From Minisyncoccota bacterium (GTDB lineage: Bacteria; Patescibacteriota; Minisyncoccia; Phycocordibacterales; UBA9973), in contig JAQULK010000001.1 of the NCBI GenBank assembly GCA_028718635.1, positions 152,626 to 216,625 of the forward strand: a DNA stretch of 64,000 bases, given 5' to 3'. The position numbers and the translations under genes were made by a program. Under the pieces are notes generated by a model. The model worked only from the letters and a program-made list of their open reading frames with translations. It had not been told where the DNA came from and did no database searches. This document shows positions 6,276 through 50,304 of this stretch, piece after piece. Position 1 is the first letter of the stretch. Every line of letters starts with the position of its first letter.

Positions 6276-8789
6276 ATGCTAAAACAGAAAACAGATAATA
6301 GTAAAACATTAGTATTACTAGATGCTCATGCGATAATCCACCGCGCTTATCATGCCTTGCCGGAATTTTTGTCTTCCAAAGGCGAGCCGACGGGGGCGCT
6401 TTATGGGCTTTCCACTATGCTGATGAAAATAATTACTGAGTTAAAGCCGGATTATATTGTGGCCTGTTATGACTTGCCCCAAAAAACTTTTAGGCACGAA
6501 GCGCATGATGGATATAAGGCAGGCCGAGCGAAAACCGAAGATGCCTTGATAATGCAATTAAAAAATTCTCGCCAGATTTTTGACGCTTTTGATATACCTA
6601 TTTATGATGCGCCTGGTTTCGAAGCGGATGATGTTTTGGGGACTATCGTGGAGAAATATAAAAAAGATAAAAATTTGAAAATCATTATTGCATCAGGAGA
6701 TATGGATACTATGCAATTGGTGGATGATAAAAAAGTGCAAGTTTACACTTTGAAAAAAGGCATCAATGATACTATTTTGTACGATGAAGATGCGGTTGTA
6801 AATCGATTTCATTTTAAACCAAAATTCCTTCCTGATTTTAAAGGATTGCGCGGCGACCCTTCAGATAATATCATCGGCATTAAAGGCGTCGGCGAAAAAA
6901 CTGCTGAAATCTTAATCTCAAAATTTGGAACCATTGAAGAAATTTATAAAAAAATTAAACAAGACGAAGAAGTTTTTAAAAAAGCAGGCATCAGTCCTAG
7001 GATGATTGAGTTGCTCAAAAATAACGAGGAAGAGGCTTTATTTTCAAAAATTCTAGCGACGATCAGAACTGACACGCCGATAGATTTTGTTTTGCCTGAA
7101 AAGACTTTTTGGGAAAAGGTGGATTTTAAAAGAATTGAACAAATTTTTTCAACTTTTGAATTTAGAAGCTTAGTAACGCGTTTAAAAAACTTTTTTGAGA
7201 ATAATGGGAATAAGAATAAACAAGAGCCCCCAGAGGATTATGCTCGCCGTCATTCGCACTCCGTCTTGGAAGGGCAAGATCCATCTGGTCGCAGCGAAGA
7301 TTCCTCTGAGCATAATCCTCTGGGGGCTGAACCCATAGATTCGCAAAAACTTCAAGAAGCCAGTATCGCCCTTTGGCTTGTCAATTCTGATATACCGAAT
7401 CCCAGCTTGGAAGATATCTTATTTTTTACCCATACGAACTCTTTTGAAAAAGCTTATGAACATATTTTCAAAAAACTGAAAGAAAATAATTTGGAGAAAG
7501 TGTATGAAGAAATAGAAAAACCCATTATCCCGATAGTGAAAAAAATGGAGGATTATGGGATTTTGATAGATAAAAAATATTTTGAAAAATTGTCTGCTGA
7601 ATACCATAAAGAATTGGATATTTTAACTAAAAAAATATATGCGCAAGCTGGTGTTGAATTTAATATAAATTCACCCAAACAATTGGGAGAAATACTTTTT
7701 GGTAAAATGGGCATAAAATCACCAGGTAAAAATGGAGCAAAAAAAAGTGCAAACGGCGGATTTTCTACTAAGGTTTCAATTTTAGAAGAACTGGAAGAAG
7801 AAAATCCGATTATAAAAGAAATATTATTTTATCGAGAATTGCAGAAATTGCTTTCTACATATATTGATGTCATTCCTAAAATGGTGGATGCTAACGGCCG
7901 TTTACACACAAAGTTTTTGCAAAATGGTACCACGACGGGAAGATTTTCTTCTCAGAATCCTAATTTGCAAAATTTACCTATCAAAACAGAACTTGGTAGA
8001 AGGATCCGAGGCGGTTTTATTGCGCCCAAAGGTTGCAAACTAGTTGCTTTTGACTATAGTCAGATCGAATTACGCATGGCTGCAATGCTTTCTGGAGATG
8101 AAAAAATGACCCAAGTTTTCCGAGATAAAAAAGATATTCATGCGGGAGTTGCTTCTTTTGTTTTTGGTGTGCCAATAGAAAAAGTAGATAGTGAAATGCG
8201 CCGAAAAGCAAAAGTGATAAATTTCGGAATTATTTATGGTATGGGGGTTTCTGCTCTGCGAAAGAATCTCGTCCGACCAAAATCGGACTCCGACACAAGG
8301 TCGGAGGTGGTAACTCGCGAGGAGGCGCAAAGATTTTATGACAATTACTTCAATCAATTTTCTGGCGTGCGGGATTATTTAGAAAAAGTAAAAAAGTTTG
8401 TGCGAGAAAACGCTTATACCGAAACTTTATTCGGCAGACGCAGGAATTTTCCAAACATAAACTCCAGAATTCCATTTTTGAAAAATATGGCGGAGCGTAC
8501 CGCGACCAATGCTCCGCTCCAGGGAACAGCCGCCGATATTATCAAATTAGCCATACGATATGCGGAAGAAGATTTGAAAAAAGCCGGCTTGTCAGAAAGC
8601 ACTCATCTGATACTTCAAATTCATGATGAACTCGTTTACGAAGTGGAAGAAAGTGTACTCTCAAAAGCTGAAAAAATAATAATGGGTGCGATGGAAGGGG
8701 TGCTTCAAAGATCATATATACATTATAAAACGGATATTCCGCTCGAAGCGCACTTTGGTTTTGGGGACAATCTCAGGGAAGTCAAATAG
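6276..8789 (+). CDS. polA: DNA polymerase I (5'-3' exonuclease plus polymerase domains; no recognisable 3'-5' exonuclease domain)
   Basis: N-terminal 5' nuclease domain (LLDAHAIIHRAYHAL..., GIKGVGEKTA), C-terminal family A polymerase motifs (DYSQIELR, KAKVINFGIIYGM, ILQIHDELVYE). Two GC-rich in-frame insertions noted. Confidence 0.9.
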   Translation: MLKQKTDNSKTLVLLDAHAIIHRAYHALPEFLSSKGEPTGALYGLSTMLMKIITELKPDYIVACYDLPQKTFRHEAHDGYKAGRAKTEDALIMQLKNSRQIFDAFDIPIYDAPGFEADDVLGTIVEKYKKDKNLKIIIASGDMDTMQLVDDKKVQVYTLKKGINDTILYDEDAVVNRFHFKPKFLPDFKGLRGDPSDNIIGIKGVGEKTAEILISKFGTIEEIYKKIKQDEEVFKKAGISPRMIELLKNNEEEALFSKILATIRTDTPIDFVLPEKTFWEKVDFKRIEQIFSTFEFRSLVTRLKNFFENNGNKNKQEPPEDYARRHSHSVLEGQDPSGRSEDSSEHNPLGAEPIDSQKLQEASIALWLVNSDIPNPSLEDILFFTHTNSFEKAYEHIFKKLKENNLEKVYEEIEKPIIPIVKKMEDYGILIDKKYFEKLSAEYHKELDILTKKIYAQAGVEFNINSPKQLGEILFGKMGIKSPGKNGAKKSANGGFSTKVSILEELEEENPIIKEILFYRELQKLLSTYIDVIPKMVDANGRLHTKFLQNGTTTGRFSSQNPNLQNLPIKTELGRRIRGGFIAPKGCKLVAFDYSQIELRMAAMLSGDEKMTQVFRDKKDIHAGVASFVFGVPIEKVDSEMRRKAKVINFGIIYGMGVSALRKNLVRPKSDSDTRSEVVTREEAQRFYDNYFNQFSGVRDYLEKVKKFVRENAYTETLFGRRRNFPNINSRIPFLKNMAERTATNAPLQGTAADIIKLAIRYAEEDLKKAGLSESTHLILQIHDELVYEVEESVLSKAEKIIMGAMEGVLQRSYIHYKTDIPLEAHFGFGDNLREVK
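7225..7328 (+). repeat. 104-bp element with perfect 21-bp terminal inverted repeats inserted in-frame in the polA inter-domain linker
   Basis: AGCCCCCAGAGGATTATGCTC (7225..7245) and its exact reverse complement GAGCATAATCCTCTGGGGGCT (7308..7328); GC-rich relative to its surroundings. Confidence 0.75.
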
Positions 8790-10082: not shown

Positions 10083-12329
10083 ATGTTGAAAAATCAACCT
10101 GCCCGCCCTCCTAAGTCAGGAGCAGGCGGGGGAAGTATCTTTAAATTACATAAACCTTTTGAGCCAGCGGGGGATCAGCCAGTGGCTATCAGAGCGCTTG
10201 TGCAAGGTCTGTCTAAGGGAATGAAAAAGCAAACATTACTAGGAGCCACCGGCACAGGCAAGACTTTTACTATGGCAAATGTCATAGCTCAATATAACAA
10301 ACCAACTTTGGTAATAGCTCACAACAAAACCCTTGCCGCCCAGTTGGCCCAAGAATTTCGTGAATTTTTTCCAGATTCCGCAGTGCATTATTTTGTTTCT
10401 TATTATGATTATTATCAACCAGAAGCCTACATGCCTGCATCGGATACTTATATTGAAAAAGATGCCTCTATCAATAAAGAAATAGACATACTTCGCCATG
10501 CTTCCACGCAAGCGCTTTTAACAAGACGAGATGTGATTATAGTTGCCTCGGTTTCTTGTATTTATGGTTTGGGTTCTCCGGAAGAATATGAAAAAGTTAA
10601 TTTAAAACTTGAAATTGGTATGACGATGGACAGATTGACCTTAATGAAGAAATTAATTCAAATTCATTTTGAACGTACCAATGCAGATCTTACTCCTGGA
10701 ACTTTTCGTTCCATCGGTTCGCGGGTGGAATTTATGCCAGTTTCGGAAAGTATAATGTACCAAGTTGAAATGCAGGGCGGGAGAATTTCCAAAATAACAA
10801 AAGTTGATCCAGTTTCTTCTATTATAATTTCTGAAGAAAAGAATATTTTTATTTTCCCAGCAAAACATTTTATTACTGAAGATGCAAAAAAGAAAAAAGC
10901 GCTTATAGAAATTAAAAAAGAGCTAGCACAACAGCTAAAAAAATTTGAAAAAGAAGGGAAACTTTTAGAGGCTGAACGTATAAAAAGAAGAACTAATTAT
11001 GATTTGGCGATGATAAAAGAAGCTGGTTATTGCAACGGCATAGAAAATTATTCTAGGCACTTATCAGGGAAAAAAGAAGGCGAACCGCCAGAAACATTGC
11101 TTTCCTATTTCCCTAAGACTGGTTTTCTTACGATTATTGATGAATCGCATGTCACAATTCCACAACTACAAGGAATGTACGCAGGAGATGCTTCAAGAAA
11201 AAACACTTTAGTAGAATATGGATTTAGACTACCCTCCGCAAAAGATAACAGACCTTTAAAATTCAATGAGTTTGAAAATAGAATATATAATTCTATTTAT
11301 ACTTCCGCTACACCTGCAAAATTTGAGAAATCAGAAAGTAATCAAATAGTGGAACAAATTATTCGTCCGACAGGGCTTGTGGACCCAGAGACAATAGTGC
11401 GACCAGTTTCCGAAGGCGCATTTCCTCCCCTCCTTAACAAGGAGGGGAATGAGGGGAGGTTCTTAATTAATTCACCTCACCCCAACCCTCTCCTTAGTAA
11501 GGAGAGGGGGAATAACTACCCTGGCCAGATTCAAGATTTTATTCAAGAAACAGAAAAAACAATTGCAAAAGGTTTCAGGGTTCTAGCGACGACGTTGACA
11601 AAAAAAATGGCAGAGGATCTTTCTGTTTATTTAAAGGACAAAAAGATCAAAGCAGAATATCTACACAGTGATGTAAAAACGATAGACAGGATAAAAATTT
11701 TAACCCAATTCCGCAAAGGCGAATTTGATGTTTTAGTTGGCGTAAATTTACTTCGTGAAGGGTTGGATTTGCCAGAAGTTGCTCTGATTGGAATTCTAGA
11801 TGCCGACAAGGCAGGTTTTTTACGATCTGAAACATCTTTAATTCAAACGATTGGCCGTGCGGCTCGCAATAGTGAGGGTAAGGTTATTCTTTATGCCGAC
11901 ATTATGACTCCCGCGATGGATTATGCCCTAAAAGAAACTGCTCGTCGCAGAAATATTCAGCTTGCTTACAACAAAAAACATGGCATTACCCCAAAAACAA
12001 TTATGAAAAAGATAAAGGATATCACCGAAGAAATGGAAAGCGAACATGGGAAAGTTGTAAACGCCGAGCTCCAGCTTGATTTGGAAGTTTTTAAGCGCGC
12101 TTATGCGAAAGAATTTAAAAAAGAAAAGAAACAAAATCGGAAAATACCGAACACCAGCTTGGGGCAGTCTTATTTGTCTGATGAAGAGATAGGCAATTTA
12201 ATCTATGAAAAAATAATAAAAATGAAAGAAAAAGAAATGAACAAGGCAGTCAAAGAGTTAGATTTCGAGACTGCGGCGATACTAAGAGACGAGATCGGAG
12301 TTTTGCGAATGCGTACAGAAAAAAAATAG
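10083..12329 (+). CDS. uvrB: Excinuclease ABC subunit B
   Basis: GATGTGKTFTMA Walker A, helicase motifs, beta-hairpin region and a C-terminal UVR domain. Contains an in-frame insertion of about 32 aa between IVRP and GQIQDF. Confidence 0.95.
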   Translation: MLKNQPARPPKSGAGGGSIFKLHKPFEPAGDQPVAIRALVQGLSKGMKKQTLLGATGTGKTFTMANVIAQYNKPTLVIAHNKTLAAQLAQEFREFFPDSAVHYFVSYYDYYQPEAYMPASDTYIEKDASINKEIDILRHASTQALLTRRDVIIVASVSCIYGLGSPEEYEKVNLKLEIGMTMDRLTLMKKLIQIHFERTNADLTPGTFRSIGSRVEFMPVSESIMYQVEMQGGRISKITKVDPVSSIIISEEKNIFIFPAKHFITEDAKKKKALIEIKKELAQQLKKFEKEGKLLEAERIKRRTNYDLAMIKEAGYCNGIENYSRHLSGKKEGEPPETLLSYFPKTGFLTIIDESHVTIPQLQGMYAGDASRKNTLVEYGFRLPSAKDNRPLKFNEFENRIYNSIYTSATPAKFEKSESNQIVEQIIRPTGLVDPETIVRPVSEGAFPPLLNKEGNEGRFLINSPHPNPLLSKERGNNYPGQIQDFIQETEKTIAKGFRVLATTLTKKMAEDLSVYLKDKKIKAEYLHSDVKTIDRIKILTQFRKGEFDVLVGVNLLREGLDLPEVALIGILDADKAGFLRSETSLIQTIGRAARNSEGKVILYADIMTPAMDYALKETARRRNIQLAYNKKHGITPKTIMKKIKDITEEMESEHGKVVNAELQLDLEVFKRAYAKEFKKEKKQNRKIPNTSLGQSYLSDEEIGNLIYEKIIKMKEKEMNKAVKELDFETAAILRDEIGVLRMRTEKK
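11420..11515 (+). repeat. Two tandem GC-rich palindromic mini-elements (CCCCTCCTTAACAAGGAGGGG and CCTCACCCCAACCCTCTCCTTAGTAAGGAGAGGGGG) inserted in-frame in uvrB
   Basis: Perfect hairpin palindromes; they encode VSEGAFPPLLNKEGNEGRFLINSPHPNPLLSKERGNNYP, which is absent from canonical UvrB between RP and GQI. Confidence 0.8.
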
Positions 12330-12487
12330 ACTTTTTAGTTTTTTGTTGTATACTGTTTCTAATTTAATATTAAAAGAAAGTCATTGACACCCCCTATGAG
12401 TAACGGCGGGTGTATTGGATATTTTATACAAAAAAAATGAAAAATGACCCCGAAGGAAAGAGTACTTCCTACGGGGCAGGAAAAAAT

Positions 12488-15148
12488 ATGAAAAAAGATT
12501 TTCAAGACAAAATAATAGTAAAAGGCGCACGAACCCATAATTTAAAGAATATAAATGTGGAAATGCCTCGTAATAAAATGATAGCCATTACTGGTGTTTC
12601 TGGTTCTGGAAAATCATCTTTGGCTTTTGATACCATTTTTGCCGAAGGACAACGCCGATACGTGGAGTCTCTTTCTTCTTATGCGCGACAATTTTTAAAC
12701 CAAATGCCTAAACCTGATGTGGATGAGATCACGGGTCTTTCTCCTGCAATATCTATTGATCAAAAATCTCGTTCAAATAATCCGCGCTCGACTGTGGCGA
12801 CGATTACAGAGATCTATGATTACTTGCGAGTGATGTATGCGCGCATTGGGCATCCACATTGTCCTTTGTGTGGCGAAGAAATTAAAAAACTTTCCAATGA
12901 AGAAATTTTAAATTTTGTTTTGGAAAAGTTGAAAACACCCTCCTTGATTAAGGAGGGTGTAGGGGGTGGTAATTCCAAGAAATCACCACCTCGCCCTTCG
13001 GGCACTCCTCCTCAAAAAGGAGGAGATAAAATTCGTAAGGTTATGGGAGTCGAATGGGATGAAACAGAAATCAGTATTTTTTCACCAGTAATCAGGGGAA
13101 GAAAAGGGGAATATTATCAACTGCTTTATGATTTGCTTGGAAAAGGTTTTGCCGAAATTCGTCTTGATGGGATGATGAAAAAACTTCGCGAGCAAATAAC
13201 TCTTTCTAAAAACAAAGCACACAATATTGATATTCTAGTGGATCATTTTGCTCTACATGAGTTTACGGATGATAAGGACGGTAGTAGAATGCGTCTTTCT
13301 GAGGCTCTAGAACGTGCGCTTCTCGAGTCTGATGGTTTAGTAACTATAAAAATCGGCGATGAGGAATTTATTATGTCTGCAAAATTCGCTTGTAAGAATG
13401 ACGGTTTTTCTTTTCCAGAAGTGGAGCCGAGATTATTTTCTTTCAATTCTCCTTATGGTGCCTGTCCAGCTTGTAATGGCCTTGGTTCAAAATATTTTAT
13501 GGGAGATGAACCTTGTGAAACTTGCCATGGCGCGCGTTTACGCTCTGAAGCCTTAAATGTTTTTTTAGAGGCTTCCAAGAAGAAGGTAAACATATTAGAT
13601 CTTGCTTCTCTTTCTATAAAAGACGCATATACTTTTTTCAAAAACTTAAAACTCTCAGAACAAGAGAAGGAAATATCGGTGCCAGTCGTTCGGGAGATAG
13701 AAGCCAGACTTCAATTTATGCTGGACGTAGGTTTGGATTATTTGCAGTTGTCTCGCAAGGCGAACACTCTCTCTGGCGGAGAAGCGCAGCGTATCCGCTT
13801 GGCTTCTCAGCTTGGTTCGAGGCTCGTCGGCGCGCTTTATGTGCTCGATGAACCCACGATCGGACTTCACCAGCGAGACAACGATCGTTTGATAAAAACA
13901 CTTCAAAATTTACGTGATTTAGGCAATACAATTTTAATTGTAGAACATGATGAGGATACTATATATGCTTCGGATTATATCGTAGATATAGGACCGAAGG
14001 CCGGGGTGCACGGCGGGGAAGTGGTTGTTTCCGGTTATTTAGAAGATCTATTAACTGCAAAAAAGAACACAAATAATTCTCGAACACTTAGTTATTTGCG
14101 CGGAGAAACAAAAATAGAAATTCCTAAAAAACGGCGCCATCCTAAAGGCGCGCTTCGAATTGCCGGAGGAAATATTTTTAATATTAACAACCTTAATGTA
14201 GAAGTGCCTCTCGGAGTAATGACATCTATCACTGGTGTTTCTGGTTCCGGAAAAAGTTCTTTTATGTATGAGATTCTTTATAAAAATCTTCAAGCCCGCT
14301 TTGAGCGAAAGTATCGCACAGCCAAGATTTTTAATTGTTCCTCATTTTCTGGGACTGAATATCTATCCAGAGTTATTTTGATTGATCAATCGCCCATAGG
14401 CAGGACTCCGCGTTCAAATATTGTTACTTATACAGGAGCCTTCACGCATATCCGAGATCTTTTTGCTTCGACCGAAGAAGCGCGCTTGCGAGGATGGAAA
14501 GCAAATCGTTTTTCTTTCAATGTGAAAGGTGGTCGTTGTGAGGCCTGCGAAGGCAATGGTGAGATAGCTGTCGAAATGCATTTTTTGCCGACGGTTTATG
14601 TCACTTGCGATGTATGTGATGGAAAACGTTTTGATAAAGAGACGCTTACTGTAAAATACAAGAAAAAAAATATTTACGAAGTCCTGCATATGACTGTAGA
14701 AAATGGCCTTACTTTTTTCAAAGATATTCCGGCGATTTCCGATAGACTGCAGACCCTCTTTGATGTAGGGCTTGGTTACTTGGAACTCGGCCAATCAGCT
14801 ACAACGCTCTCTGGCGGGGAAGCGCAACGAGTAAAAATAAGTAGCGAGCTTTATCGTCCGCATTTGGAAAAAACTATTTATCTTTTAGATGAACCGACTG
14901 TGGGGCTTCATTATGATGACGTGCAGAAACTTTTGGAGGTTTTAAATAAATTGGTATCTCATGGCAATACGGTTGTCCTAATTGAACACAACCTTGATAT
15001 TGTGAAAAGTTCAGATTACATTATAGATATTGGTCCAGAAGGAGGAGTAGACGGAGGTAAAATTGTTGCCAAAGGCACGCCGGAAGAAGTGGCTGGAAAC
15101 AGCAAATCACACACTGGCAAATACTTAAGAAGAGTTTTGAGAAAATAA
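12488..15148 (+). CDS. uvrA: Excinuclease ABC subunit A
   Basis: Two ABC ATPase modules ([12 protein letters not shown] and [10 protein letters not shown]), zinc fingers, and ABC signature LSGGE twice. Start set at the ATG at 12488 ([21 protein letters not shown]) by alignment to the UvrA N-terminus. The ORF-track start at 12410 is a GTG. Confidence 0.9.
12935..13026 (+). repeat. Three small GC-rich palindromes inserted in-frame in uvrA
   Basis: CACCCTCCTTGATTAAGGAGGGTG, GGTGGTAATTCCAAGAAATCACCACC and CCTCCTCAAAAAGGAGGAG; the encoded segment [30 protein letters not shown] is absent from canonical UvrA. Confidence 0.75.
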
Positions 15149-15226: not shown

Positions 15227-16519
15227 ATGACGAATGAAACTCTAAAAAAATTAAAACTGCCAGATAAGCCCGGTGTATATTTTTTCTTAAAAAATAAGAA
15301 AATTTTATACATCGGAAAAGCGACCTCTCTTCGAGACCGCACCAAAAGCTATTTCAGCAAGGACTTGATAAATACCCGAGGTCCGCTTGTTTTAGATATG
15401 GTTTTTAAATCGGACAATATAAAATGGGAAGCCACCGATTCTGTTTTAGAAGCTCTTATTTTAGAAGCTAATTTAATAAAAAAATATCAGCCTTATTACA
15501 ATACAAGAGAAAAAGATGATAAGAGTTTCAATTATGTCTGCATCACAAGGGAGAAATTGCCAAGAGTATTAGTAGTTAGAGGCCGAGTTTTAAAAAATTA
15601 TAAAGGAAGTATCTTTGGCCCGTATACTAGCGGTACCCAATTGCATGAGGCGTTAAAAATCTTACGCAGAATTTTTCCTTTTATTGATGACAAATCGAGT
15701 AAAAAACAAAACTATGAATTTTATAAACAGCTTGGACTGACTCCAGACGCATCATCTCCGAGTGAAATTTATTTGGATAATATAAAATATTTGAAACTTT
15801 TCTTTAAAGGCAAAAAGAAAGATATCATCCGAGATTTGAAAAAAAAGATGATGCAAAAAGCCAAAGAGGGAGAATTTGAAAAGGCCGGAGAAGTTAAAAG
15901 GCAAATTTTTGCGCTGAAACACATCAATGATATTGCGCTTATAAAAAATAGCTTCGCAGATAATAAAATTTTTGGTCCTGCGCCCTCCTTTGGGCGCATT
16001 TCTGGGAGCAAAGCGGGACCCTCGGACACAAAAATTTTATTATCTGCTTTGCTATTTCGCATTGAGGCTTATGACATAGCGCACATGGGAGGCAAAAATA
16101 TGGTTGGGGTGATGACAGTTTTGGAAAACGACGAAGCAGTAAAGAGTGAGTACAGAAAATTCAAAATTAAGACTCAGAATAATGTAAATGATACCGGCGC
16201 ACTCGCGGAAGTTTTAGAAAGAAGGTTGATGCATAAAGAATGGGCATTTCCAGATTTAATTGTGGTGGATGGCGGTATGGCGCAAATTAATGCCGCCAAA
16301 AGTGTTTTAAAAAAAATGGGTTTAAACATACCCGTAGTTTCTGTTGTTAAAGATGAACACCATAAACCGAAAGCCATAATGGGGGACAATCCACGCCACG
16401 GCAGGGCAAGAGATTTTGGATTAAAATATAAAAGAGAAATTCTACTAGCGAACAGCGAAGCACACCGATTTGCCATCAGTTATCATAAAAATATGAGGAA
16501 TAAGAATTTCTTGATTTAG
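15227..16519 (+). CDS. uvrC: Excinuclease ABC subunit C (short form, about 430 aa, lacking C-terminal HhH region)
   Basis: N-terminal GIY-YIG domain (PGVYFFLKNKKILYIGKATSLRDR) and a C-terminal RNase H-like endonuclease domain (VVDGGMAQINAA...). Confidence 0.85.
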   Translation: MTNETLKKLKLPDKPGVYFFLKNKKILYIGKATSLRDRTKSYFSKDLINTRGPLVLDMVFKSDNIKWEATDSVLEALILEANLIKKYQPYYNTREKDDKSFNYVCITREKLPRVLVVRGRVLKNYKGSIFGPYTSGTQLHEALKILRRIFPFIDDKSSKKQNYEFYKQLGLTPDASSPSEIYLDNIKYLKLFFKGKKKDIIRDLKKKMMQKAKEGEFEKAGEVKRQIFALKHINDIALIKNSFADNKIFGPAPSFGRISGSKAGPSDTKILLSALLFRIEAYDIAHMGGKNMVGVMTVLENDEAVKSEYRKFKIKTQNNVNDTGALAEVLERRLMHKEWAFPDLIVVDGGMAQINAAKSVLKKMGLNIPVVSVVKDEHHKPKAIMGDNPRHGRARDFGLKYKREILLANSEAHRFAISYHKNMRNKNFLI

Positions 16520-16544: not shown

Positions 16545-18293
16545 ATGAATTCCGAAACGCGGGTCTGCCAAAATTGCAAAAAAGATTTCACGATAGAACC
16601 AGAAGATTTTTCTTTTTATGAGAAACTAAAAGTGCCAGCGCCCACTTGGTGTCCGGACTGCAGATTTGTACGCAAACTCACTTTTATTAATGAACGATCT
16701 TTATATAAAGAAACTTGCGGTAATTGCAAAAAATCAATAATTTCAATGTATAGTCCAGAGAGCGGTATTTCTTCTTGGTGTATCAAATGCCACTTGAGCG
16801 ATGTCTGGGATGCGCGCGATTATGGCAGGGAATATGATTTTTCGAAGACATTTTTTGAGCAGTTTAAAGAATTAAAATACAATATTCCTCACAGAGCGCT
16901 TGATCAAAATGAACGCAACGGAGAAGGCTGTGAATATTCAAATTTATGCTTTGCGAACAAAGATGTCTATTTATCTTTTAATATTGTGGGTTCTGAGCAT
17001 ATAAAATATTCTAATAATGTTTTAAAACGAAATAAAAATTGTTTGGATTCTATGATTATTAAAGCCAACGATAGAGGATACGAGCTGGTACAAGCCAGCA
17101 ACAATTACAACTCGACTTTTTTAATAGAAAGTGATCAGTGTGTGGATTCACATTTCCTTTATGATTGTTCAAATTGCGTAAAATGTTGTTTATCATGTAA
17201 TCTTCGCAATAAAAGTAATGTTTTTAAAAATCAACAATTATCTAAAGAGAAATATGAAGAAGCAGTTACAAATTTGAAATTAGAAACATATTCAGGACAA
17301 ATAAAGGCTAAGGATATTTTTAGGGATTTAGCAAAAAATGCTATTCATAAACATGCGCACATTAAAAATTCAGTAAATGTAGTTGGGGATTTTGTGGAAA
17401 ATTCAAAAAATGTTTATCACTGCTATTGTGTGGCTGATGCGGAAAATGTTAAATATGTTTTTTTTAGTGCCAATGCTATGAAAGATAGCCAAGATGTTGT
17501 GTCATGTGGAAAGATTGAAGAATGTTATGAATTTACTTTAGGAGGAAGAGGTTCCAATCGAGTAGTTTTATGTCTTAGTTGTGGAGGAGGGAATAATAAT
17601 TTGTTTTATTGTGATAATGTTAGAAGTAGTTCTAATTGCTTTGGTTGTGTGAATTTAATTAAGAAACAATATTGTATATTTAATAAGCAATATTCAAAAG
17701 AAGAATATTTCGAATTGTTGTCGAAAATTATGAAACATATGAATGAGATGCCGTATGTGGATGCGCTTGGAAGGGAATATGTTTTTGGTGAATTTTTTCC
17801 TACAGAGATTTCTCCTTTTGCTTATAATGAAACTCGAGCATTTGAAGAATGTCCACTTTCAAAAGAAGAAGTGCTTGCTTTTGGTTATAAATGGAAGGAA
17901 ATAGAAGCCAAAGCCTATGTTCCAACAATAAAAGGAGATGCTATTCCTGATAGCATTAAAGATGTTGAGGATACAATTTGCGACGAAGTTATCGAGTGTC
18001 CCAATAAAGGTAAAGTAGAGACGCGATGCACTTCAGCCTATAAAATATTACCGGATGAGCTTTCTTTTTATCGACAAATGAATCTGCCGATACCTAGATA
18101 TTGTCCGAATTGTAGATACCACCAGCGTTTAGCTTGGAAAAATCCTTTTCATTTTTATAAACGAGAGTGTATGTGTGAATTGCAGAATCATCAACACAAA
18201 GGAAAGTGTCTAAATAAATTTGAAACTATGTATGCTTCTGATCGACCAGAGATAATTTATTGCAAAGAATGTTATCAGGCAGAAATATATTAG
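16545..18293 (+). CDS. Cys-rich protein of unknown function (paralogue 1 of a two-member family in this window)
   Basis: 582 aa. N-terminal CQNCKKDFTIEPEDFSFYEKLKVPAPTWCPDCR and C-terminal MNLPIPRYCPNCR zinc-ribbon-like modules, plus internal C.GC.NL...YCI.NKQYSKEEY repeats. Full-length homology to the ORF at 51882..53585. Confidence 0.7.
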   Translation: MNSETRVCQNCKKDFTIEPEDFSFYEKLKVPAPTWCPDCRFVRKLTFINERSLYKETCGNCKKSIISMYSPESGISSWCIKCHLSDVWDARDYGREYDFSKTFFEQFKELKYNIPHRALDQNERNGEGCEYSNLCFANKDVYLSFNIVGSEHIKYSNNVLKRNKNCLDSMIIKANDRGYELVQASNNYNSTFLIESDQCVDSHFLYDCSNCVKCCLSCNLRNKSNVFKNQQLSKEKYEEAVTNLKLETYSGQIKAKDIFRDLAKNAIHKHAHIKNSVNVVGDFVENSKNVYHCYCVADAENVKYVFFSANAMKDSQDVVSCGKIEECYEFTLGGRGSNRVVLCLSCGGGNNNLFYCDNVRSSSNCFGCVNLIKKQYCIFNKQYSKEEYFELLSKIMKHMNEMPYVDALGREYVFGEFFPTEISPFAYNETRAFEECPLSKEEVLAFGYKWKEIEAKAYVPTIKGDAIPDSIKDVEDTICDEVIECPNKGKVETRCTSAYKILPDELSFYRQMNLPIPRYCPNCRYHQRLAWKNPFHFYKRECMCELQNHQHKGKCLNKFETMYASDRPEIIYCKECYQAEIY

Positions 18294-18332: not shown

Positions 18333-18818
18333 ATGAAAAAGGAAAATCAACAAGAAAATATTTTAATATTACACAATATCCGAAGCGTGGAAAACGTCGG
18401 GGCGATGTTTCGCACGGCTGATGCGGCGGGAATAAACAAAATTTATTTGTCGGGCTACACCCCAACTCCGCTTGATCGTTTTGGCAGAAAGAGAAGGGAT
18501 TTAGCTAAGTCTGCGCTCGGAGCGGAAGAATATATAACTTGGGAATATAAAAAAAGCTTGCCCGCCATTTTGCGAAGCTTAAGGCGGGAGAAATATTTAA
18601 TTATTGGAATAGAGCAGGATAAAAAATCGGTTGATTATAAAAAGGTAAAATTACATAATAAAAATGTTTTTATCGTAGGAACGGAAGTGACAGGCATACC
18701 TAAAAGTATTTTAAAAAAATGTGATGTAATTGCTGAAATTCCAATGCGAGGCAAAAAAGAATCGTTAAATGTTTCCGTGGCACTAGGAATAGCGCTCTTC
18801 GGGATTCTAAAATTATAG
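18333..18818 (+). CDS. SpoU/TrmH-family RNA 2'-O-methyltransferase
   Basis: ILILHNIRSVENVGAMFRTADAAGI... typical SPOUT methyltransferase motifs. Confidence 0.8.
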   Translation: MKKENQQENILILHNIRSVENVGAMFRTADAAGINKIYLSGYTPTPLDRFGRKRRDLAKSALGAEEYITWEYKKSLPAILRSLRREKYLIIGIEQDKKSVDYKKVKLHNKNVFIVGTEVTGIPKSILKKCDVIAEIPMRGKKESLNVSVALGIALFGILKL

Positions 18819-18857
18819 AATCAAAATTTTTGCCGGTACGGATTTTTTGAAGCTTAA

Positions 18858-18925
18858 AAAATCCTGAAGTTGGCTCGCCGTCGCTCGCCAAACCCCTTAA
18901 AAACTTTATTCTCTAATTTTAGAAT
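18858..18925 (+). repeat. Intergenic repeat family R1 (CGGTACGGATTTTTTGAAGCTTAAAAAATCCTGAAGTT...GGCTCGCC...AAACCCCT), copy 1; copy 2 at 41197..41265
   Basis: 38-bp identical core containing a perfect 9-bp-stem hairpin GGATTTTTT-GAAGCTT-AAAAAATCC, with similar flanks; both copies lie immediately 3' of genes. Confidence 0.7.
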
Positions 18926-18954
18926 CCAGAAATAAAATAAATATAAAATTTAGA

Positions 18955-19020
18955 AAGCCTTGCGCAGGCTGACGAGCCGAGCAGTTCGCTGGCGCACCAG
19001 CGCCAGATAGATTGCTTTAT
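18955..19020 (+). repeat. Intergenic repeat family R2 (CCTTGCGCAGG...GACGAGC.GAGCAGTTCGCTGGC-hairpin-CCAGATAGATTGCTTT), copy 1; inverted copy at 20869..20960
   Basis: Collinear similarity after reverse complement. The central hairpin differs in sequence (CTGGCGCACCAGCGCCAG vs CTGGCAAAGCTTTGCCAG) but remains a palindrome in both copies. Confidence 0.65.
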
Positions 19021-19037
19021 AAGTTTTGATATTTATT

Positions 19038-19943
19038 TTATTTCTGATGCACGGAGCAAAAATGCGCGCTGCGGCCGTTTATTATTTTTCTAATTATTGT
19101 GCCTTTACAACCTTTTTTTCTGCATTTTTCTCCTGTGCGTCTATAAGCTTCATGATGCAGTTGGAATTTTCCGGGCAGGCCATAAATATTTTTGTAATCT
19201 GACATTGAGTCTCCGCCGAAATCTATGCCTTTCGCGAGTGTTTCTTTGATGGCTTTGAATATCAATTTAATTTCTGGCTTTTTGAGCGTGGAAACTTTTC
19301 TCTCCGGATGCACTCCGGCGCGCCAAAGTATTTCATCTGAATAAATATTACCAATGCCGGCAATAATTCTTTGATCCATCAAGACTGTCTTAATTTTCCC
19401 ATTTTGTTTTTTAAAAATTTGTAATTCGAAATTCGTAATTGTAAATTGTTTCTCTAACGGTTCCGGTCCGATATTATTCAGATGTTTACTACCTGCCCCG
19501 TAGGAAGTAATCTTTCCTTCGGGGTCGTGGGCAACGTTAGTATCTAATAAAGTAATTTTTCCGAATTTACGCATATCTGAAAAAATTAAATAATGTTTGC
19601 TTGTCCCGCCATGGCGTGGGTTAGATAAAGTGAAAACCACATGCGCAAATTTAATTTTTGGATCTTTGCCGTAAAATAAATAACCGGTCATCTTCATATG
19701 AACCAAGATGGTTTTACCTTCGGACAAGTTTATCAGGATATTTTTTGCACGTCTTTCGGCTGATATAATTTTCTTATTTAAAACTTCCTTTTTAAAATTT
19801 CTGAAAAATTTTGGATTTGCCACGCTGTCTCTTTTGCGCTTGTCTTTCGTCGCCAAATCAGTCCAAACGTCCTTTATTACAAGGCCTAGGACAGTCTTTT
19901 TGAGACCTCTTGTAGTTGTTTCTACTTCTGGTAATTCAGGCAT
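19038..19943 (-). CDS. mutM: Formamidopyrimidine-DNA glycosylase
   Basis: N-terminal MPELPEVE catalytic motif, H2TH region, and a C-terminal CxxC...CxxC zinc finger. Contains a 29-bp GC-rich palindrome in-frame (PEGKITSYGAG). Confidence 0.9.
   Translation of the reverse strand: MPELPEVETTTRGLKKTVLGLVIKDVWTDLATKDKRKRDSVANPKFFRNFKKEVLNKKIISAERRAKNILINLSEGKTILVHMKMTGYLFYGKDPKIKFAHVVFTLSNPRHGGTSKHYLIFSDMRKFGKITLLDTNVAHDPEGKITSYGAGSKHLNNIGPEPLEKQFTITNFELQIFKKQNGKIKTVLMDQRIIAGIGNIYSDEILWRAGVHPERKVSTLKKPEIKLIFKAIKETLAKGIDFGGDSMSDYKNIYGLPGKFQLHHEAYRRTGEKCRKKGCKGTIIRKIINGRSAHFCSVHQK
19496..19524 (+). repeat. 29-bp palindromic element (CCCCGTAGGAAGTAATCTTTCCTTCGGGG) in-frame in mutM; a near-identical inverted copy lies at 12448..12476 just upstream of uvrA
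   Basis: The two copies differ at 2 of 29 positions after reverse-complementing one; each forms an 11-bp stem hairpin. Confidence 0.75.
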
Positions 19944-20851: not shown

Positions 20852-21008
20852 TTCATCAAAAATTTATATTTTAAAAAGCAATCTATCTGGCAAAGCTTTG
20901 CCAGCGAACTGCTCGTCGATCAAGAAAATAATAGAAAGAGTACTTTCTTTATTTTCTAATCTCCTGCGCAAGGCTTTTAAAAATACAAATTTTTGACCAC
21001 CATATATT

Positions 21009-23237: not shown

Positions 23238-23951
23238 CTAATTTGTCAAGCTTAATGAGTTTAGGAAAATAGCCAATTCTTCTCCCTTTATTTCTCTTAA
23301 AGTATTTGGTTTTAAGTTGTTCAATTTGATATTCATAATTCTTTCACGTTTTAAGTCGGCTACTTCTTGAAAAAGATTCGAGCACATCCGGCGGATTTGG
23401 TGTTTTTTCCCTTCAGTCAAAATTACTTTAAAAGTATTTTCACTCATTGTTTTTACTTTGCATGGTTTGGTGACATAGCCTTCAATATTTACTCCTGCTT
23501 CCATTTTTTGTTTGAAGTTGGAGCGGAGTTTTTCTTTGGTGCGGACGATGTATTCTTTTTCGTGAAAATATTTTGGGTTTAGGAGCTGGTCAGTGATGCG
23601 CCCGTCATTTGTTAGGATCATTAGTCCGTGGCTAGCCTTATCTAGTCTTCCTAAAGGAAACAAGCCTTCTTTGGGAGAACTGGTTTCTGTGCCTTTTGGC
23701 TTATAGTATGCATAATATTTATATGCCGTTGGTTTTGCGCCCTTCACTTCCACTATGTCATTTTCATTTACCTGACTGCCTAGGACCGCTAATTTTTTAT
23801 TGATATATACTTTTTTTTCTTTTATTAAAAGATCCGCTCCTCGTCTGGTAGAGATTTTTTTTAAAGCTAGGTATTTATTTATCCGTACACCAACTTTGGT
23901 ATTGCTTTTTTTGTTCTGCTCTGAATTTATTGACTGATTATTATTTTTCAT
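23238..23951 (-). CDS. rsuA: rRNA pseudouridine synthase (RsuA/RluB family)
   Basis: S4 RNA-binding domain followed by a GRLDKASHGLMILTNDG catalytic motif. Confidence 0.8.
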   Translation of the reverse strand: MKNNNQSINSEQNKKSNTKVGVRINKYLALKKISTRRGADLLIKEKKVYINKKLAVLGSQVNENDIVEVKGAKPTAYKYYAYYKPKGTETSSPKEGLFPLGRLDKASHGLMILTNDGRITDQLLNPKYFHEKEYIVRTKEKLRSNFKQKMEAGVNIEGYVTKPCKVKTMSENTFKVILTEGKKHQIRRMCSNLFQEVADLKRERIMNIKLNNLKPNTLREIKGEELAIFLNSLSLTN

Positions 23952-24088
23952 AAAATGATATATTTAGTAATTAAAAATATTGAAAAAGCAGAACAATACC
24001 AAAGTTGGTGTTGGGATTTATCCGCATGGCTGTCAGTATAGCATATTATGCATTTGCAGATAATGAGTTATTGAGATAAAGTGGTTGT

Positions 24089-32849: not shown

Positions 32850-33344
32850 CTAAAACCCCAAGGCCTCCATTATTTTTTCTGAAGCATGTTCTTTCATTTC
32901 CACTTCTGGAATATTTTTTGAAAGCATTATGGAGTGAATATCTTCTGCTATTGCTTCAGCTATTGGGATAGAGAGAATAGGCATAAAAGCTCTTTCTGAA
33001 TGAATGAAAAGGATTGGTTTAATACCTGCTTCAGGATGTTCTCCTAATTGAACCCAAAAGGATTTTATATTTTCAAAAGGATAAAGGCGGTTTCTAATGA
33101 TCAAGCCCTTTTGATTTAATTCATAGGTGATCGTATCTGGTTTTTTAATGGCAAAAAATCCGAGCAGGATTCCAGCAAGAATAATTAAAGCTGCAAAAAA
33201 ATAATTTTCAAAAATAATAGAAGCGATGGAGCTTGTCACCACAATGATGCCGAGCGCCCAAAACCAATCCGAGGTTCGATCTTTCTCTTCGTATTCCAAG
33301 GCAGACCAAACTAATTTTTCATCTGATCTTTCGATTATTTCCAT
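32850..33344 (-). CDS. Hypothetical membrane protein (2 TM)
   Basis: ORF with two hydrophobic helices. Its ATG is provided by the end of a MITE-like repeat. Confidence 0.5.
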   Translation of the reverse strand: MEIIERSDEKLVWSALEYEEKDRTSDWFWALGIIVVTSSIASIIFENYFFAALIILAGILLGFFAIKKPDTITYELNQKGLIIRNRLYPFENIKSFWVQLGEHPEAGIKPILFIHSERAFMPILSIPIAEAIAEDIHSIMLSKNIPEVEMKEHASEKIMEALGF

Positions 33345-33466
33345 CCCGTTAGAAGCAGATCGCGATCAACTCGCGTATCTGATATATTAGGTTATTAATT
33401 TTCTCAATACTTGGTTTCATGTTTTTGTTTGTTTTAAAATTGCGATCGCGGCTTCTAACGGGATCC
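33342..33466 (-). mobile_element. MITE-like ~125-bp element, copy A, with ~22-bp terminal inverted repeats (ATCCCGTTAGAAGC.GATCGCGATC)
   Basis: About 85% identical over its full length to the reverse complement of 59112..59236; termini CATCCCGTTAGAAGC...GCTTCTAACGGGATCC. Confidence 0.7.
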
Positions 33467-39762: not shown

Positions 39763-40275
39763 CTAGTTCAGTATAGCTATTTCAGGTTTTTTCTCAAGTT
39801 TATTTTTTAACCAGCTGTTTTTTAAAAAATGTTCTTCATAATGACAATTTGGGCAAATAAGCTCTAAATTTTTGAGTTCATTATTATTTCTATCTCTGTT
39901 TTTATGATGAACTTGCAATATTTCATATTTATCATAATCACATTTCTCGCATTTTTTACCTCTTACTTTTAGCAATCTAAGTTTCAAAAGTTGTTGAGAC
40001 TTTACTTTGCTTTTTGAAGGTCTTCCGATTTTATATTTTATGCCTGTTCTGTATTTATTTGCACAACTTCTGCTACAAGTTTTTTTATTTAGGCCAGTCA
40101 AAATTAATTTTCCACACATTGAGCAGGGGATTTCTTTTCTAAGAGAAATACCATAACAAGCAGGACTACAAAAGACTCGACCCTTATTTGCTGCTATCTC
40201 AGAAGGTCTTCTATAAATTTCTTTTTTACAAATACTGCAATTAGTATTTGGATTTCTTTTATATGCCTCAGCCAC
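39763..40275 (-). CDS. HNH endonuclease with N-terminal zinc-ribbon repeats
   Basis: CEKCDYDKYEILQVHHKNRDRNNNELKNLELICPNCH HNH motif; GTG start; 12 nt from tRNA-Ser. Confidence 0.8.
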   Translation of the reverse strand: MAEAYKRNPNTNCSICKKEIYRRPSEIAANKGRVFCSPACYGISLRKEIPCSMCGKLILTGLNKKTCSRSCANKYRTGIKYKIGRPSKSKVKSQQLLKLRLLKVRGKKCEKCDYDKYEILQVHHKNRDRNNNELKNLELICPNCHYEEHFLKNSWLKNKLEKKPEIAILN

Positions 40276-44648: not shown

Positions 44649-45476
44649 ATGGACAACGAAATCAAAATAGCCATTTTCAAAGGCAAGGAAATCAGAAAAA
44701 TCATTTATAATAATGAATGGTGGTTTTCGGTTGTGGATGTTATTGAAGTTTTGACGGATAGCGTCAATCCTCGAGATTATTGGTATAGAATGAAAGCAAG
44801 AGTTAAAGATGAGGATGGGGTTGAGTTGTCGACAATTTGTCGACAACTGAAACTGCAATCTTCCGACGGGAAATTTTATGAAACCGACTGTGCCAACACC
44901 GAAGGCTTATTTCGAATTATTCAGTCCATTCCTTCTCCTAAAGCCGAGCCACTAAAAAGATGGCTTGCCAAAGTGGGCTATGAACGAATTCAGGAAATTG
45001 AAGATCCTGAATTAGCCACCAAAAGAACACGAATTTTATACAAACTCAAAGGCTATCCCGACAACTGGATCGAAAAAAGAATGCGAGGCATCGCTATCCG
45101 CGAAGAATTGACAGACGAATGGAAAAAACGAGGAGCCAAAGAGCAACGGGAATACGAAATTTTGACAGCGGAAATTTCCAAAGCGAGTTTCGGTGTTACT
45201 CCGAGCGAATACAAAAAACTAAAAGGATTAAAAAGGGAAAACCTGCGTGACCATATGGACGATTTTGAACTTATCTTTAATATGCTCGGCGAAAGAGCTA
45301 CAACTGAAATACACAGAACTGAAAATTCCCAAGGTGTGGTAAAATTAAAAGCTGATGCTAAAGCTGGTGGCAGTATTGCCGGTGGGGCCAGGAAAAAACT
45401 TGAAAAACGATTAGGCCGGTCCATTGTTTCTAAAAACAATTTTAAGTTGTTAAAAAATAGGAAAAGGTTAAAATAA
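44649..45476 (+). CDS. Bro-N domain protein / DNA-damage-inducible protein D (DinD)-like
   Basis: N-terminal Bro-N-like segment (IKIAIFKGKEIRKIIYNNEWWFSVVDVIEVL) and a C-terminal DinD-like region (LRDHMDDFELIFNMLGERATTEIH...GGSIAGGARKKLE). TATAAT lies 7 nt upstream of the ATG. Confidence 0.65.
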   Translation: MDNEIKIAIFKGKEIRKIIYNNEWWFSVVDVIEVLTDSVNPRDYWYRMKARVKDEDGVELSTICRQLKLQSSDGKFYETDCANTEGLFRIIQSIPSPKAEPLKRWLAKVGYERIQEIEDPELATKRTRILYKLKGYPDNWIEKRMRGIAIREELTDEWKKRGAKEQREYEILTAEISKASFGVTPSEYKKLKGLKRENLRDHMDDFELIFNMLGERATTEIHRTENSQGVVKLKADAKAGGSIAGGARKKLEKRLGRSIVSKNNFKLLKNRKRLK

Positions 45477-49254: not shown

Positions 49255-50304
49255 TTACTTCTTTCTATACCTCGTCGTCCTCCCTTGTCCGATGCGTTCC
49301 ACTTTTTTCAAACGCAAAAGAGTGTCGATTGCTTGTGATACAGTTGGTCTCGCTACTTTTGTGTTCTTTGAAATTTCTCCCGGGGTTGCTTCAGAAACTT
49401 TTTCAAGATATTCCCAAACCAAAAGCTGTTTTGGAGATAAAAGTTTTTCAATATTTTCTTTTGACAATAATTCAATTGCTTGCTTTGCCTGAGTGAGTAG
49501 AACATTAAAAAAGAATTCAAGCCATGGCTCAATATTTGCATTGTTAGATTTTAAAGTTTTCTGACTTTTGCGAAGAGCGATATAGTACTCAGCTTTGTTG
49601 TCTTCAATTAATTTCTCATGCGAGACATAAGGCATATACGCGTAGCCAGCCTGAAGCATCATTAAATTTGTTAGTACTCTGGAAAGTCTGCCGTTGCCAT
49701 CTTGGAATGGGTGAATATTTAAAAATTCAATTAAAAAATTAGCAACAATAAGCAGTGGGTGGATTTCTTTTTGAATAAAAGATTCTTTTGTCCATTCCAC
49801 TAACTCCTGCATTTCCTTTGGCGTAAGCCAAGCAGGCGTAGTATCAAATAACACGCCGACGGATTCACCAGCCTCGTTTATCATTTCAACCCTATTCTCT
49901 GTTTTTTTGTATTCGCCTCTGTGAAGCTTATCCTTCTCTACATACTTCAAAAGTTCTTTATGCAGATGCTGAATACTACTTTCCGAAAATGGTATTTTGT
50001 TATAAGAATTGAAAACATTATTCAGCAGTTCGTAATATCCTTGCACCTCCTGCTTGTCCCGATCAGCGAATTTTTGCATAGAAAGTCCGCGCATCATTTT
50101 TTCAACATCTTCGTCTGAAAGTTTTGCTCCTTCAATACGAGTTGATGCGCCAGCCGAAGTAATTAAAACCGAGCGTTTCAATCTTCCGAGCGCCTGCGGA
50201 TTTATCTCCGCTCCACCAATCCATCTTCCTTTTAACTCATCAATTTGGTTGATGATTGTCCATAGACTTTGTGGTATATTTTGAATACGTTTATTGTAAT
50301 TCAT
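49255..50304 (-). CDS. Fic family protein with C-terminal winged-helix domain
   Basis: Canonical Fic motif HPFQDGNGRLSRV; C-terminal HTH-like tail. Confidence 0.85.
   Translation of the reverse strand: MNYNKRIQNIPQSLWTIINQIDELKGRWIGGAEINPQALGRLKRSVLITSAGASTRIEGAKLSDEDVEKMMRGLSMQKFADRDKQEVQGYYELLNNVFNSYNKIPFSESSIQHLHKELLKYVEKDKLHRGEYKKTENRVEMINEAGESVGVLFDTTPAWLTPKEMQELVEWTKESFIQKEIHPLLIVANFLIEFLNIHPFQDGNGRLSRVLTNLMMLQAGYAYMPYVSHEKLIEDNKAEYYIALRKSQKTLKSNNANIEPWLEFFFNVLLTQAKQAIELLSKENIEKLLSPKQLLVWEYLEKVSEATPGEISKNTKVARPTVSQAIDTLLRLKKVERIGQGRTTRYRKK

Follow-up and report, generated by a model that had tools for sequence, protein, structure and literature searches.

A hairpin in frame in the polA gene of a Minisyncoccota bacterium belongs to a dispersed family with a conserved core and locus-specific arms

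To our knowledge, selfish palindromes that lie in frame within genes are represented by essentially one textbook case, the Rickettsia palindromic elements (RPEs). These are hairpin-forming repeats of about 100-150 bp (RPE-1 to RPE-10; Ogata et al. 2000, reviewed in PMC10969869) that occur in a small, AT-rich genome, in frame in unrelated housekeeping genes, whose open reading frames (ORFs) are kept and whose extra peptide is thought to be structurally tolerated (PMC10969869). They have family-wide consensus sequences and no known associated transposase, and 44 copies were first reported in R. conorii (PMC10969869). Here we describe a hairpin of 104 nt within polA, in a stretch of 64,000 nt (hereafter the window; contig JAQULK010000001.1 of assembly GCA_028718635.1, positions 152,626 to 216,625, forward strand) from a Minisyncoccota bacterium, a member of the Patescibacteria or candidate phyla radiation (CPR). 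A preliminary description had taken it for a miniature inverted-repeat transposable element (MITE). Our results suggest that the polA element is likely to be one copy of a low-copy, dispersed, RPE-like family of GC-rich hairpins, the arms of which are kept complementary by template switching.

Like the RPEs, the CPR hairpins are about 100 nt long (96-114 nt in copies with intact arms), lie in frame in unrelated genes and, in PolA, occupy a position that the protein fold tolerates. Unlike the RPEs, they were detected in only 1-2 copies per genome, and only their core is conserved, the arms being locus-specific and partly copied from the native flank. They also differ in being found in both orientations at one site, in the competition between unrelated families, in their bias towards repair genes and in the phylum that hosts them, the Patescibacteria. 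The likeness is one of behaviour, and all 50 copies in our collection come from metagenome-assembled genomes (MAGs) of Patescibacteria or from metagenomes, so that we class the family as RPE-like and not as RPE.

Inverted repeats formed by template switching have been described in coding DNA (Abraham & Hazkani-Covo 2021, PMC8604942; Monttinen & Loytynoja 2022, PMC8794818; PMC13100816), and switching between the arms of such repeats homogenises the arms, inverts the spacer and expands the arms (PMC8604942, PMC13100816, PMC8794818). The CPR hairpins display arm homogenisation, simultaneous compensatory changes, expansion of the arms into the flanks (10-13 native nt) and inversion of the spacer, and these sequence patterns are consistent with the same process. 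In contrast to the published repeats, which are local and have spacers of a few nt, the CPR family has a 68-nt core at many unlinked loci in many species. MITEs, and the repetitive extragenic palindromic sequences (REPs) and REPINs, are also short, non-coding, hairpin-forming dispersed repeats. However, MITEs have conserved terminal inverted repeats and direct target duplications, both of which the CPR hairpins lack; and REPs and REPINs are extragenic, conserved palindromes linked to REP-associated tyrosine transposases (RAYTs), none of which fits the CPR hairpins. The GC clusters of yeast mitochondrial DNA are mobile GC-rich palindromes in an AT-rich mitochondrial genome, and include in-frame copies in var1. 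Palindromes are also present in the coding sequences of Nematomorpha mitochondria, where conserved protein sequence is encoded by each arm and a conserved mobile core is absent (PMC6649704). The CPR hairpins share with these mitochondrial palindromes an AT-rich, reduced genome and an occasional location in coding sequence with the frame kept, but the latter are organellar and not bacterial. In the literature searched, no report of palindromic or MITE-like in-frame elements in CPR/Patescibacteria was found. By analogy with the RPEs, the behaviour of the hairpins may be regarded as already known; what is new is how they are built and distributed, with a core that is conserved, inverted arms derived from the target, inversion in place, families that compete for the same sites and the repair-gene bias.

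The window hairpin consists of two 21-nt arms, AGCCCCCAGAGGATTATGCTC at 7225-7245 and its exact reverse complement at 7308-7328, separated by 62 nt. This perfect inverted repeat, as first described, was confirmed by the sequence, by a mismatch search, by shuffles and by folding. With up to 3 mismatches allowed, the window matches the arm only at these two positions, and 100 dinucleotide shuffles yielded no match at all. A 124-nt stretch folds as plus-strand RNA with -56.7 kcal/mol, compared with -33.6 ± 3.8 kcal/mol for its shuffles (z = -6.1; 0 of 200 as good), and the opposite strand of the hairpin folds with -54.5 kcal/mol (z = -4.5). The local GC content is about 0.50, and that of nearby DNA is 0.26-0.39.

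In the window PolA, Pfam places 5_3_exonuc_N/5_3_exonuc at aa 11-275 and DNA_pol_A at aa 434-834, and Taq Pol I (1TAQ/1BGX) aligns to aa 12-301 and 392-832. The insert (aa 317-352) is outside both the Pfam and the Taq-aligned blocks and is therefore assigned to the inter-domain tether. Thus, the ORF, Pfam and the Taq alignment all support the initial observation that the peptide EPPEDYARRHSHSVLEGQDPSGRSEDSSEHNPLGAE is encoded in frame between the 5'-nuclease and polymerase domains of Pol I. AlphaFold2 gives a predicted local distance difference test (pLDDT) value below 50 for residues 311-350 (means of 10-residue blocks, 28-36), flanked by confident helices at 297-311 and 356-369, and the inserted peptide is predicted to be disordered, at a place that the PolA fold tolerates. 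The insert is presumably translated, in which case peptides such as HSHSVLEGQDPSGR would be expected in the protein. A database protein 100% identical to the window PolA (P0001) is annotated as the DNA polymerase of a Ca. Pacebacteria MAG. The linker is hypervariable across 120 orthologues of PolA (75-87% identity to that of the window), in which a few peptide types recur. The type found in the window (RRHSHSVLEGQ..SGRSEDSSEH) is the commonest, and another, AQRSLRNDQKELALPGQSANDGEH, corresponds closely to what the window element encodes in frame when reverse-complemented. Elsewhere in the same protein, a 12-aa insertion relative to Taq Pol I, RPKSDSDTRSEV, is present in the polymerase domain (~8270-8306, aa ~666-677), with a local GC peak of 0.50 and AlphaFold2 pLDDT values below 50 at residues 672-675.

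Further copies were sought with degenerate core patterns in one genome per GTDB species and in metagenomes; the patterns contain 20-24 fixed bases, which inflates the apparent conservation of the core, and diverged copies and other host genes may be missed. The genome scan gave 29 matches, of which 21 were genuine, with 48-64 of 68 core nt identical to the window core, all from Patescibacteria MAGs. The other 8, from GC-rich phyla, were chance matches that share only the fixed bases of the pattern (29-41/68) and can thus be separated from genuine copies. The metagenomes provided 29 further matches, all genuine (50-64/68). Together with the window copy and three related loci (L001-L003), the family amounts to 53 copies, 35 of them distinct, all from Patescibacteria; the family was found in the Paceibacteria/Nomurabacteria of the CPR. 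Two core patterns had no match in viral contigs, so there is no sign of a phage origin. A phmmer search of the 36-aa peptide against 1.84 billion representatives gave no match at E<=0.001, a result that is uninformative because the query is too short for power, and a profile of 14 peptide sequences gave 13 candidates, none with E<=1. Given that the protein-level searches were uninformative, the census of host genes is based on the DNA scans.

In all, 10 sites bear the core: the polA tether, uvrB site 1 (SYFP^DFLTIIDESH), uvrB site 2 (VRPVS^YPGQIQDF), uvrA, uvrC, recJ, leuS, rsmA/ksgA and two sites that are apparently non-coding. DNA-repair genes account for 6 of the 8 coding sites. All the coding copies share one phase, which is in frame and free of stop codons, and in it they encode RRHSHSVLEGQ..SGRSEDSSE or, when reversed, AQRSLRNDQ..LALPGQSANDGE. 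Both orientations of the core are found at polA and at uvrB site 2, and the recJ copy is reversed, with one orientation predominating at 7/8 coding sites. In the polA genes of L002 and L003 the interior is 85-87% identical but reversed, and is enclosed by complementary arms of their own; L003 also has a second copy, in frame in uvrB, as detected by BLAST. No more than two copies were detected in any genome (L003; L008 with L011). In the window there is one, and neither the arm search with up to 3 mismatches, nor BLAST with the element and its interior, nor an nhmmer core profile found a second. A profile search of ~260 kb of Patescibacteria DNA gave no diverged extra copies, which indicates that the copy number is low. 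The LeuRS of L023, which bears the core, also has a NUDIX domain inserted after its editing domain (Pfam PF00293, E = 5e-16).

The preliminary description had proposed that the absence of other terminal-repeat copies, together with orthologues having the same linker, would disprove a mobile element. Indeed, no other copy of the exact arm was found in the DNA examined and many PolA orthologues share the linker type; yet the core is dispersed over 10 sites. Such a test is misleading because it is the core that appears to move, not the arms.

The core can be aligned without gaps across 22 distinct copies, and the flanking 14-20 nt differ at every locus. Between copies, arm identity is 0.39-0.40, compared with 0.29 for random flank, with ~3-6 nt beside the core being shared. 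Within each copy, about 85% of the arm positions are Watson-Crick paired. Of the structure cells, 88.3% are paired, a value not attained by any of 500 shuffles, which gave 68.9%; slid controls gave 35-43%. Both partners have changed in 20 of the 21 pairs of the outer helix, where one position can show as many as four standard pair types, and RNAalifold applied to the 22 copies predicted this helix independently. Among copies with recognisably related arms, 235 compensated and 102 single changes were counted, although these pairs are not independent. The arms of the window and of its closest orthologue, L001, are clearly homologous and differ by 3 compensated double changes and 1 single change. 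Single-sequence folding suggests further helices within the core; these do not vary, and some of their bases are fixed by the search pattern, so that covariation speaks neither for nor against them. On the core strand, arm mismatches comprise 25 A.C and 7 G.T, and this A.C excess was not used as evidence for the folding strand because a single mismatch that recurs at arm position 3-4 accounts for many of the cases.

The conservation of the core seems to be exerted on nucleotides. The 62-nt interior of the polA hairpin is 85-94% identical between orthologues, whereas the third codon positions of polA outside the linker are only 51-65% identical. Core conservation is 0.84, 0.83 and 0.81 at codon positions 1, 2 and 3, respectively, and 0.757, 0.748 and 0.744 when only the 48 positions outside the search pattern are considered. 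Equal conservation across codon positions implies that constraint, or the recency of the copies, acts on the nucleotides and not on the peptide.

Comparison of occupied with empty alleles shows that the flank is duplicated in inverted and not in direct orientation. Empty alleles of uvrB site 2 read V-S-E-K-E-N-Y-x-G-Q-I. At this site, L022 has a net insert of 87 nt that consists of 16 nt, the core and 3 nt, and the 16-nt left part is an inverted copy of 'tac' plus 13 native nt (Y-P-G-Q codons); L009 has an insert of 96 nt that includes an inverted copy of 10 native nt. In L022 and L009 it is the right arm that is native; in L004 and L010 the left arm is native and the right one is the copy. 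In the uvrB site 1 copies, the right arm extends into the native P-D-F-L codons, which are synonymous between species (cca gat ttc, cct gac ttt or ccc gac ttt), and the left arm tracks each version. The preliminary description was correct in that 104 is not a multiple of 3, but its concern about the frame is resolved by net insertions of 87 or 96 nt relative to empty alleles at other copies: the length of the hairpin poses no frame problem because the hairpin is not the insertion unit, and the stem may include native sequence. Target-site duplications, which it had recommended looking for, were not seen beyond chance in 36 distinct copies, the longest flanking direct repeat being 3 nt, with a distribution equal to that of shuffled flanks. 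At uvrB site 1 of L051, a short palindrome (gaacatgttc, within P-H-I-S-P-E-H-V-P-D-F-L) is present where other species have arms and core; it could be either a footprint of core loss or a palindrome that precedes insertion.

The cores are not clustered by site. The polA core of L001 is identical to the uvrB site 2 core of L009 (0 differences), and 3 differences separate L022 uvrB site 2 from L031 polA, 4 separate L007 uvrB site 1 from L015 polA, and 5 separate L023 leuS from L029 uvrC. The two copies found in one genome (L008 and L011) have derived variants in common. In a PolA tree built without the linker, the nearest neighbour has the same linker type in only 42 of 120 cases, and unrelated families are found in closely similar proteins (P0045, type C, and P0053, type E, 4.0% divergent; P0060, type A, and P0118, type D, 4.9%; P0001, type A, and P0007, type B, 7.2%). 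Some linkers are composite, type A being joined to a B or a C tail and type D to an A tail, and a truncated A is also seen. For the polA site and for each uvrB site, there are species without an insert and others with unrelated inserts that fold strongly. The type C family, with two copies in one genome, has a conserved core of ~45 nt and locus-specific arms of 24-27 nt, one of which is native codons.

Hairpins of other families are present in the repair genes of the window. In uvrB (10083..12329), a different in-frame hairpin insert, GAFPPLLNKEGNEGRFLINSPHPNPLLSKERGNN, which folds with -57 kcal/mol, occupies 11412-11532 at VRPVS^YPGQIQDF, the position of the polA-type core in other species; L002 and L003 are empty there. 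The N-terminus of the window UvrB (10083-10150) also has an insert-like sequence, NQPARPPKSGAGGGS, that is absent from L002 and L003. In uvrC (15227..16519), an in-frame hairpin at 15946-16057, NSFADNKIFGPAPSFGRISGSKAGPSDTKILLSALL, folds with -54 kcal/mol and has a GC-rich core between AT-rich arms of 29 nt that are 90% complementary, the outermost AAA/TTT being native K and F codons. Its site, ALIK^FRIEAYD, bears the polA-type core in L029, L049 and L056. The window UvrA (12410-15148) has an insert-like 36-aa peptide that resembles a 12-aa stretch of the L004 uvrB site 1 insert, and the motif DPEGK(S/I)TSYGAG is found both in the UvrA N-terminus and in Fpg (19038-19943, minus strand). In addition, the PolA of L040 has an extra insert, LTLRPLLNKERVGEKL, in the 5'-nuclease domain, resembling the insert family of the window uvrB site 2. 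The repair cluster itself is variable between close relatives: in the window a 223-aa ORF and the SpoU methylase gene flank the uvrB-uvrA-uvrC block, whereas L001, whose PolA is 87% identical to that of the window, lacks this block between the two.

Hairpins also occur in non-coding DNA of the window. Those at 18927-19046 and 20856-20996 have a common GC-rich core in opposite orientation, CGAGCAGTTCGCTGGC...GCCAGATAGATTGCTTT, and differing AT-rich arms, which is the build of conserved core and local arms in intergenic DNA. The SpoU methylase ORF (18333..18818) overlaps at its 3' end with the start of a 134-nt hairpin at 18798-18931. Within the hairpin interior is CTCGCCGTCGCTCGC, which matches the first 15 nt of a polA-type core variant (cf. 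L013), and the hairpin may be a related or chimeric element.

How could such a family arise and persist? We propose that the spreading unit would be an asymmetric core of ~68-74 nt that gains, at each locus, locus-unique arms of 14-20 nt, some of which are in part an inverted duplicate of the native sequence alongside. Copies would persist only where they are harmless, that is, in frame, in either of two hydrophilic frames and in flexible loops or tethers of large proteins, and those that persist would be translated as disordered peptide. Polymerase template switching between the arms during replication would create and extend them and keep them complementary. The same template switching might also invert the core where it lies and so account for a site with both orientations. 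Mobility is deduced from the distribution of the copies, given that no mobilising enzyme and no direct target duplication were found. The family is probably selfish.

Several points weigh against this proposal. The copy number is very low (1 in the window and <=2 detected per genome), unlike that of typical selfish repeats, and the repair-gene bias (6/8 coding sites) is not predicted by a purely selfish model. The strong nucleotide-level conservation of the core at orthologous sites could reflect a host function. Part of the apparent conservation is supplied by patterns with 20-24 fixed bases. Neither a mobilising enzyme, among the window ORFs, nor a direct target duplication, in the 36 distinct copies, was found. 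Moreover, the spacer inversions published for coding DNA involve a few nt (PMC8604942), not 62-68 nt.

A role for the host, as a structured RNA hairpin or a DNA hairpin or cruciform common to the repair genes polA, uvrA, uvrB, uvrC and recJ, is unlikely, and is the main alternative; it could act as a co-regulating binding site or processing signal, or as a translational pause between domains. A conserved core with a stem that varies in sequence and keeps its pairing is the classic signature of a functional structure, and the core is equally conserved at the three codon positions and much more so than expected from the neutral divergence of the host gene. Repair genes provide 6 of 8 coding sites, among them recJ, which does not lie near polA in the window, and 7/8 coding sites have mainly one orientation. 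However, the two orientations at polA and uvrB site 2 and the reversed recJ copy would produce a different RNA, and sites are empty in some species or hold hairpins with unrelated cores in close relatives. Copies are also found in leuS, rsmA and non-coding DNA, and the element matches no Rfam family and bears no terminator or promoter signal. Furthermore, the invariant inner helices show no covariation, and the 25 A.C and 7 G.T mismatches are the opposite of what a sense-RNA stem tolerates, with the caveat that many are one recurrent mismatch.

A conventional MITE, a deletion derivative of an insertion sequence mobilised in trans by an end-recognising transposase, appears even less probable. 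The preliminary description rightly recognised a small, foreign-looking palindrome, in frame in the tether, and the dispersed family, the presence/absence polymorphism and the terminal inverted repeat of the window copy are all what a MITE would show. Nevertheless, MITE status fails on two defining features, because the terminal repeats are not conserved across the family (identity 0.39-0.40) and there is no target-site duplication beyond chance. Native host codons form part of the arms, the 60 window ORFs yielded no transposase, HUH, integrase or reverse-transcriptase domain, and the copy number is very low. The least credible of the explanations considered is that of an ancient, immobile and vertically inherited polA linker, whose hairpin was made in place by template switching alone and whose similar sequences elsewhere result from gene conversion or chance. 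Template switching can make hairpins from nothing (PMC8794818), many PolA orthologues have the same linker type at the same position, and the window and L001 arms are clearly homologous. This explanation is already contradicted by the multi-gene distribution: the 68-nt core (48-68/68 identical) is found at seven other genes or sites and at two apparently non-coding sites, polA and uvrB site 2 cores of different organisms can be identical, linker types are scattered over the PolA tree, and chance matches (29-41/68, fixed bases only) are clearly distinguishable from true copies.

The RPE-like family with arms kept by template switching is thus the explanation that we favour. A broader and more doubtful idea, which we offer tentatively, is that Paceibacteria carry an unrecognised class of mobile hairpins, with several unrelated core families, that integrate by copy-choice or template switching with arms built from the flank and that prefer repair genes. 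Such integration would leave no transposase-type target duplication, and the families would repeatedly replace each other in polA, uvrABC and recJ. The 5'-nuclease of Pol I, a homologue of FEN1/Rad27, normally limits hairpin-driven template switching. If the idea were true, a self-reinforcing relation between the elements and the repair genes that limit template switching would be possible.

The occurrence of an analogous, differently built system in tiny AT-rich CPR genomes suggests that genome reduction repeatedly exposes housekeeping genes to such elements. The hairpins may offer a natural, sequence-rich system to study how template switching creates and maintains hairpins and how new peptide segments enter essential proteins. 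In addition, the inserts inflate and scramble the linkers of polA and uvrABC in CPR and, when unrecognised, confuse alignment, phylogeny, domain annotation and indel markers. The repair-gene bias is directly testable on complete CPR genomes. Table 1 lists the features of the locus.

Table 1. The polA locus of the window and the parts of its hairpin; position 1 is the first nucleotide of the window.
Feature	Position	Strand	Remarks
polA, Taq-like DNA polymerase I, 837 aa, without recognisable 3'-5' exonuclease domain	6276..8789	+	From ORF, Pfam and Taq alignment
Encoded 36-aa peptide	7224..7331	+	EPPEDYARRHSHSVLEGQDPSGRSEDSSEHNPLGAE; predicted disordered tether
Left arm	7225..7245	+	Locus-specific except inner ~6 nt; inner CTC (7243-7245) within conserved core
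Conserved 68-nt core	7243..7310	+	CTCGCCGTCATTCGCACTCCGTCTTGGAAGGGCAAGATCCATCTGGTCGCAGCGAAGATTCCTCTGAG; part common to all family members
Right arm	7308..7328	+	Exact reverse complement of 7225-7245; inner GAG (7308-7310) within core

Other identities for the hairpin were considered and rejected. Rfam 15 detected only tRNAs at the gathering threshold in the whole window, and nothing at E<=10 for 7150-7400. No terminator-like site was found in 6900-7700, and promoter-like sites were at chance level. An intrinsic terminator is ruled out by the 62-nt interior, by the GAACCCATAG that follows the hairpin and by the terminator scan. REPs and REPINs do not fit, as 8/10 sites are intragenic, the arms are not conserved and the window has no Y1/HUH transposase. 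Local hopping as the sole cause of the repair-gene bias is excluded by recJ, leuS and rsmA, which are outside the 64-kb window. An intron, an intein or another excision at the RNA level is judged unlikely; the coding copies are all in frame and use only 2 of 4 open frames, which implies selection for read-through. A bulge-helix-bulge motif is rejected, the window stem being perfect and free of bulges.

The survey of the 60 window ORFs, in which no transposase, HUH/Y1, integrase or reverse-transcriptase domain was found, covered about 10% of the genome; 50 ORFs were domain-scanned, polA was analysed by Pfam and the rest were identified from their sequences. Genes of defence or mobile type are present at 39763-40275, 44649-45476, 49255-50304 and 60908-61645, namely a sub-threshold HNH endonuclease, a BRO-N protein, a Fic/DOC protein and an AbiEii toxin, and none of these is an obvious mobilising enzyme for the hairpins. 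Directly downstream of uvrC, 16545-18293 encodes a cysteine-rich protein of 582 aa with many CxxC pairs and no Pfam match, and 51882-53585 encodes a protein of 567 aa with only a weak treble-clef zinc-finger match. Two further long hairpins were observed in the window. One, at 23881-24017, has 36-nt arms (81%) and extends across the start of a pseudouridine synthase ORF (minus strand, 23238..23951) into the spacer that precedes 24089; the other, at 33343-33464, has perfect arms of 14 nt and an interior of 94 nt.

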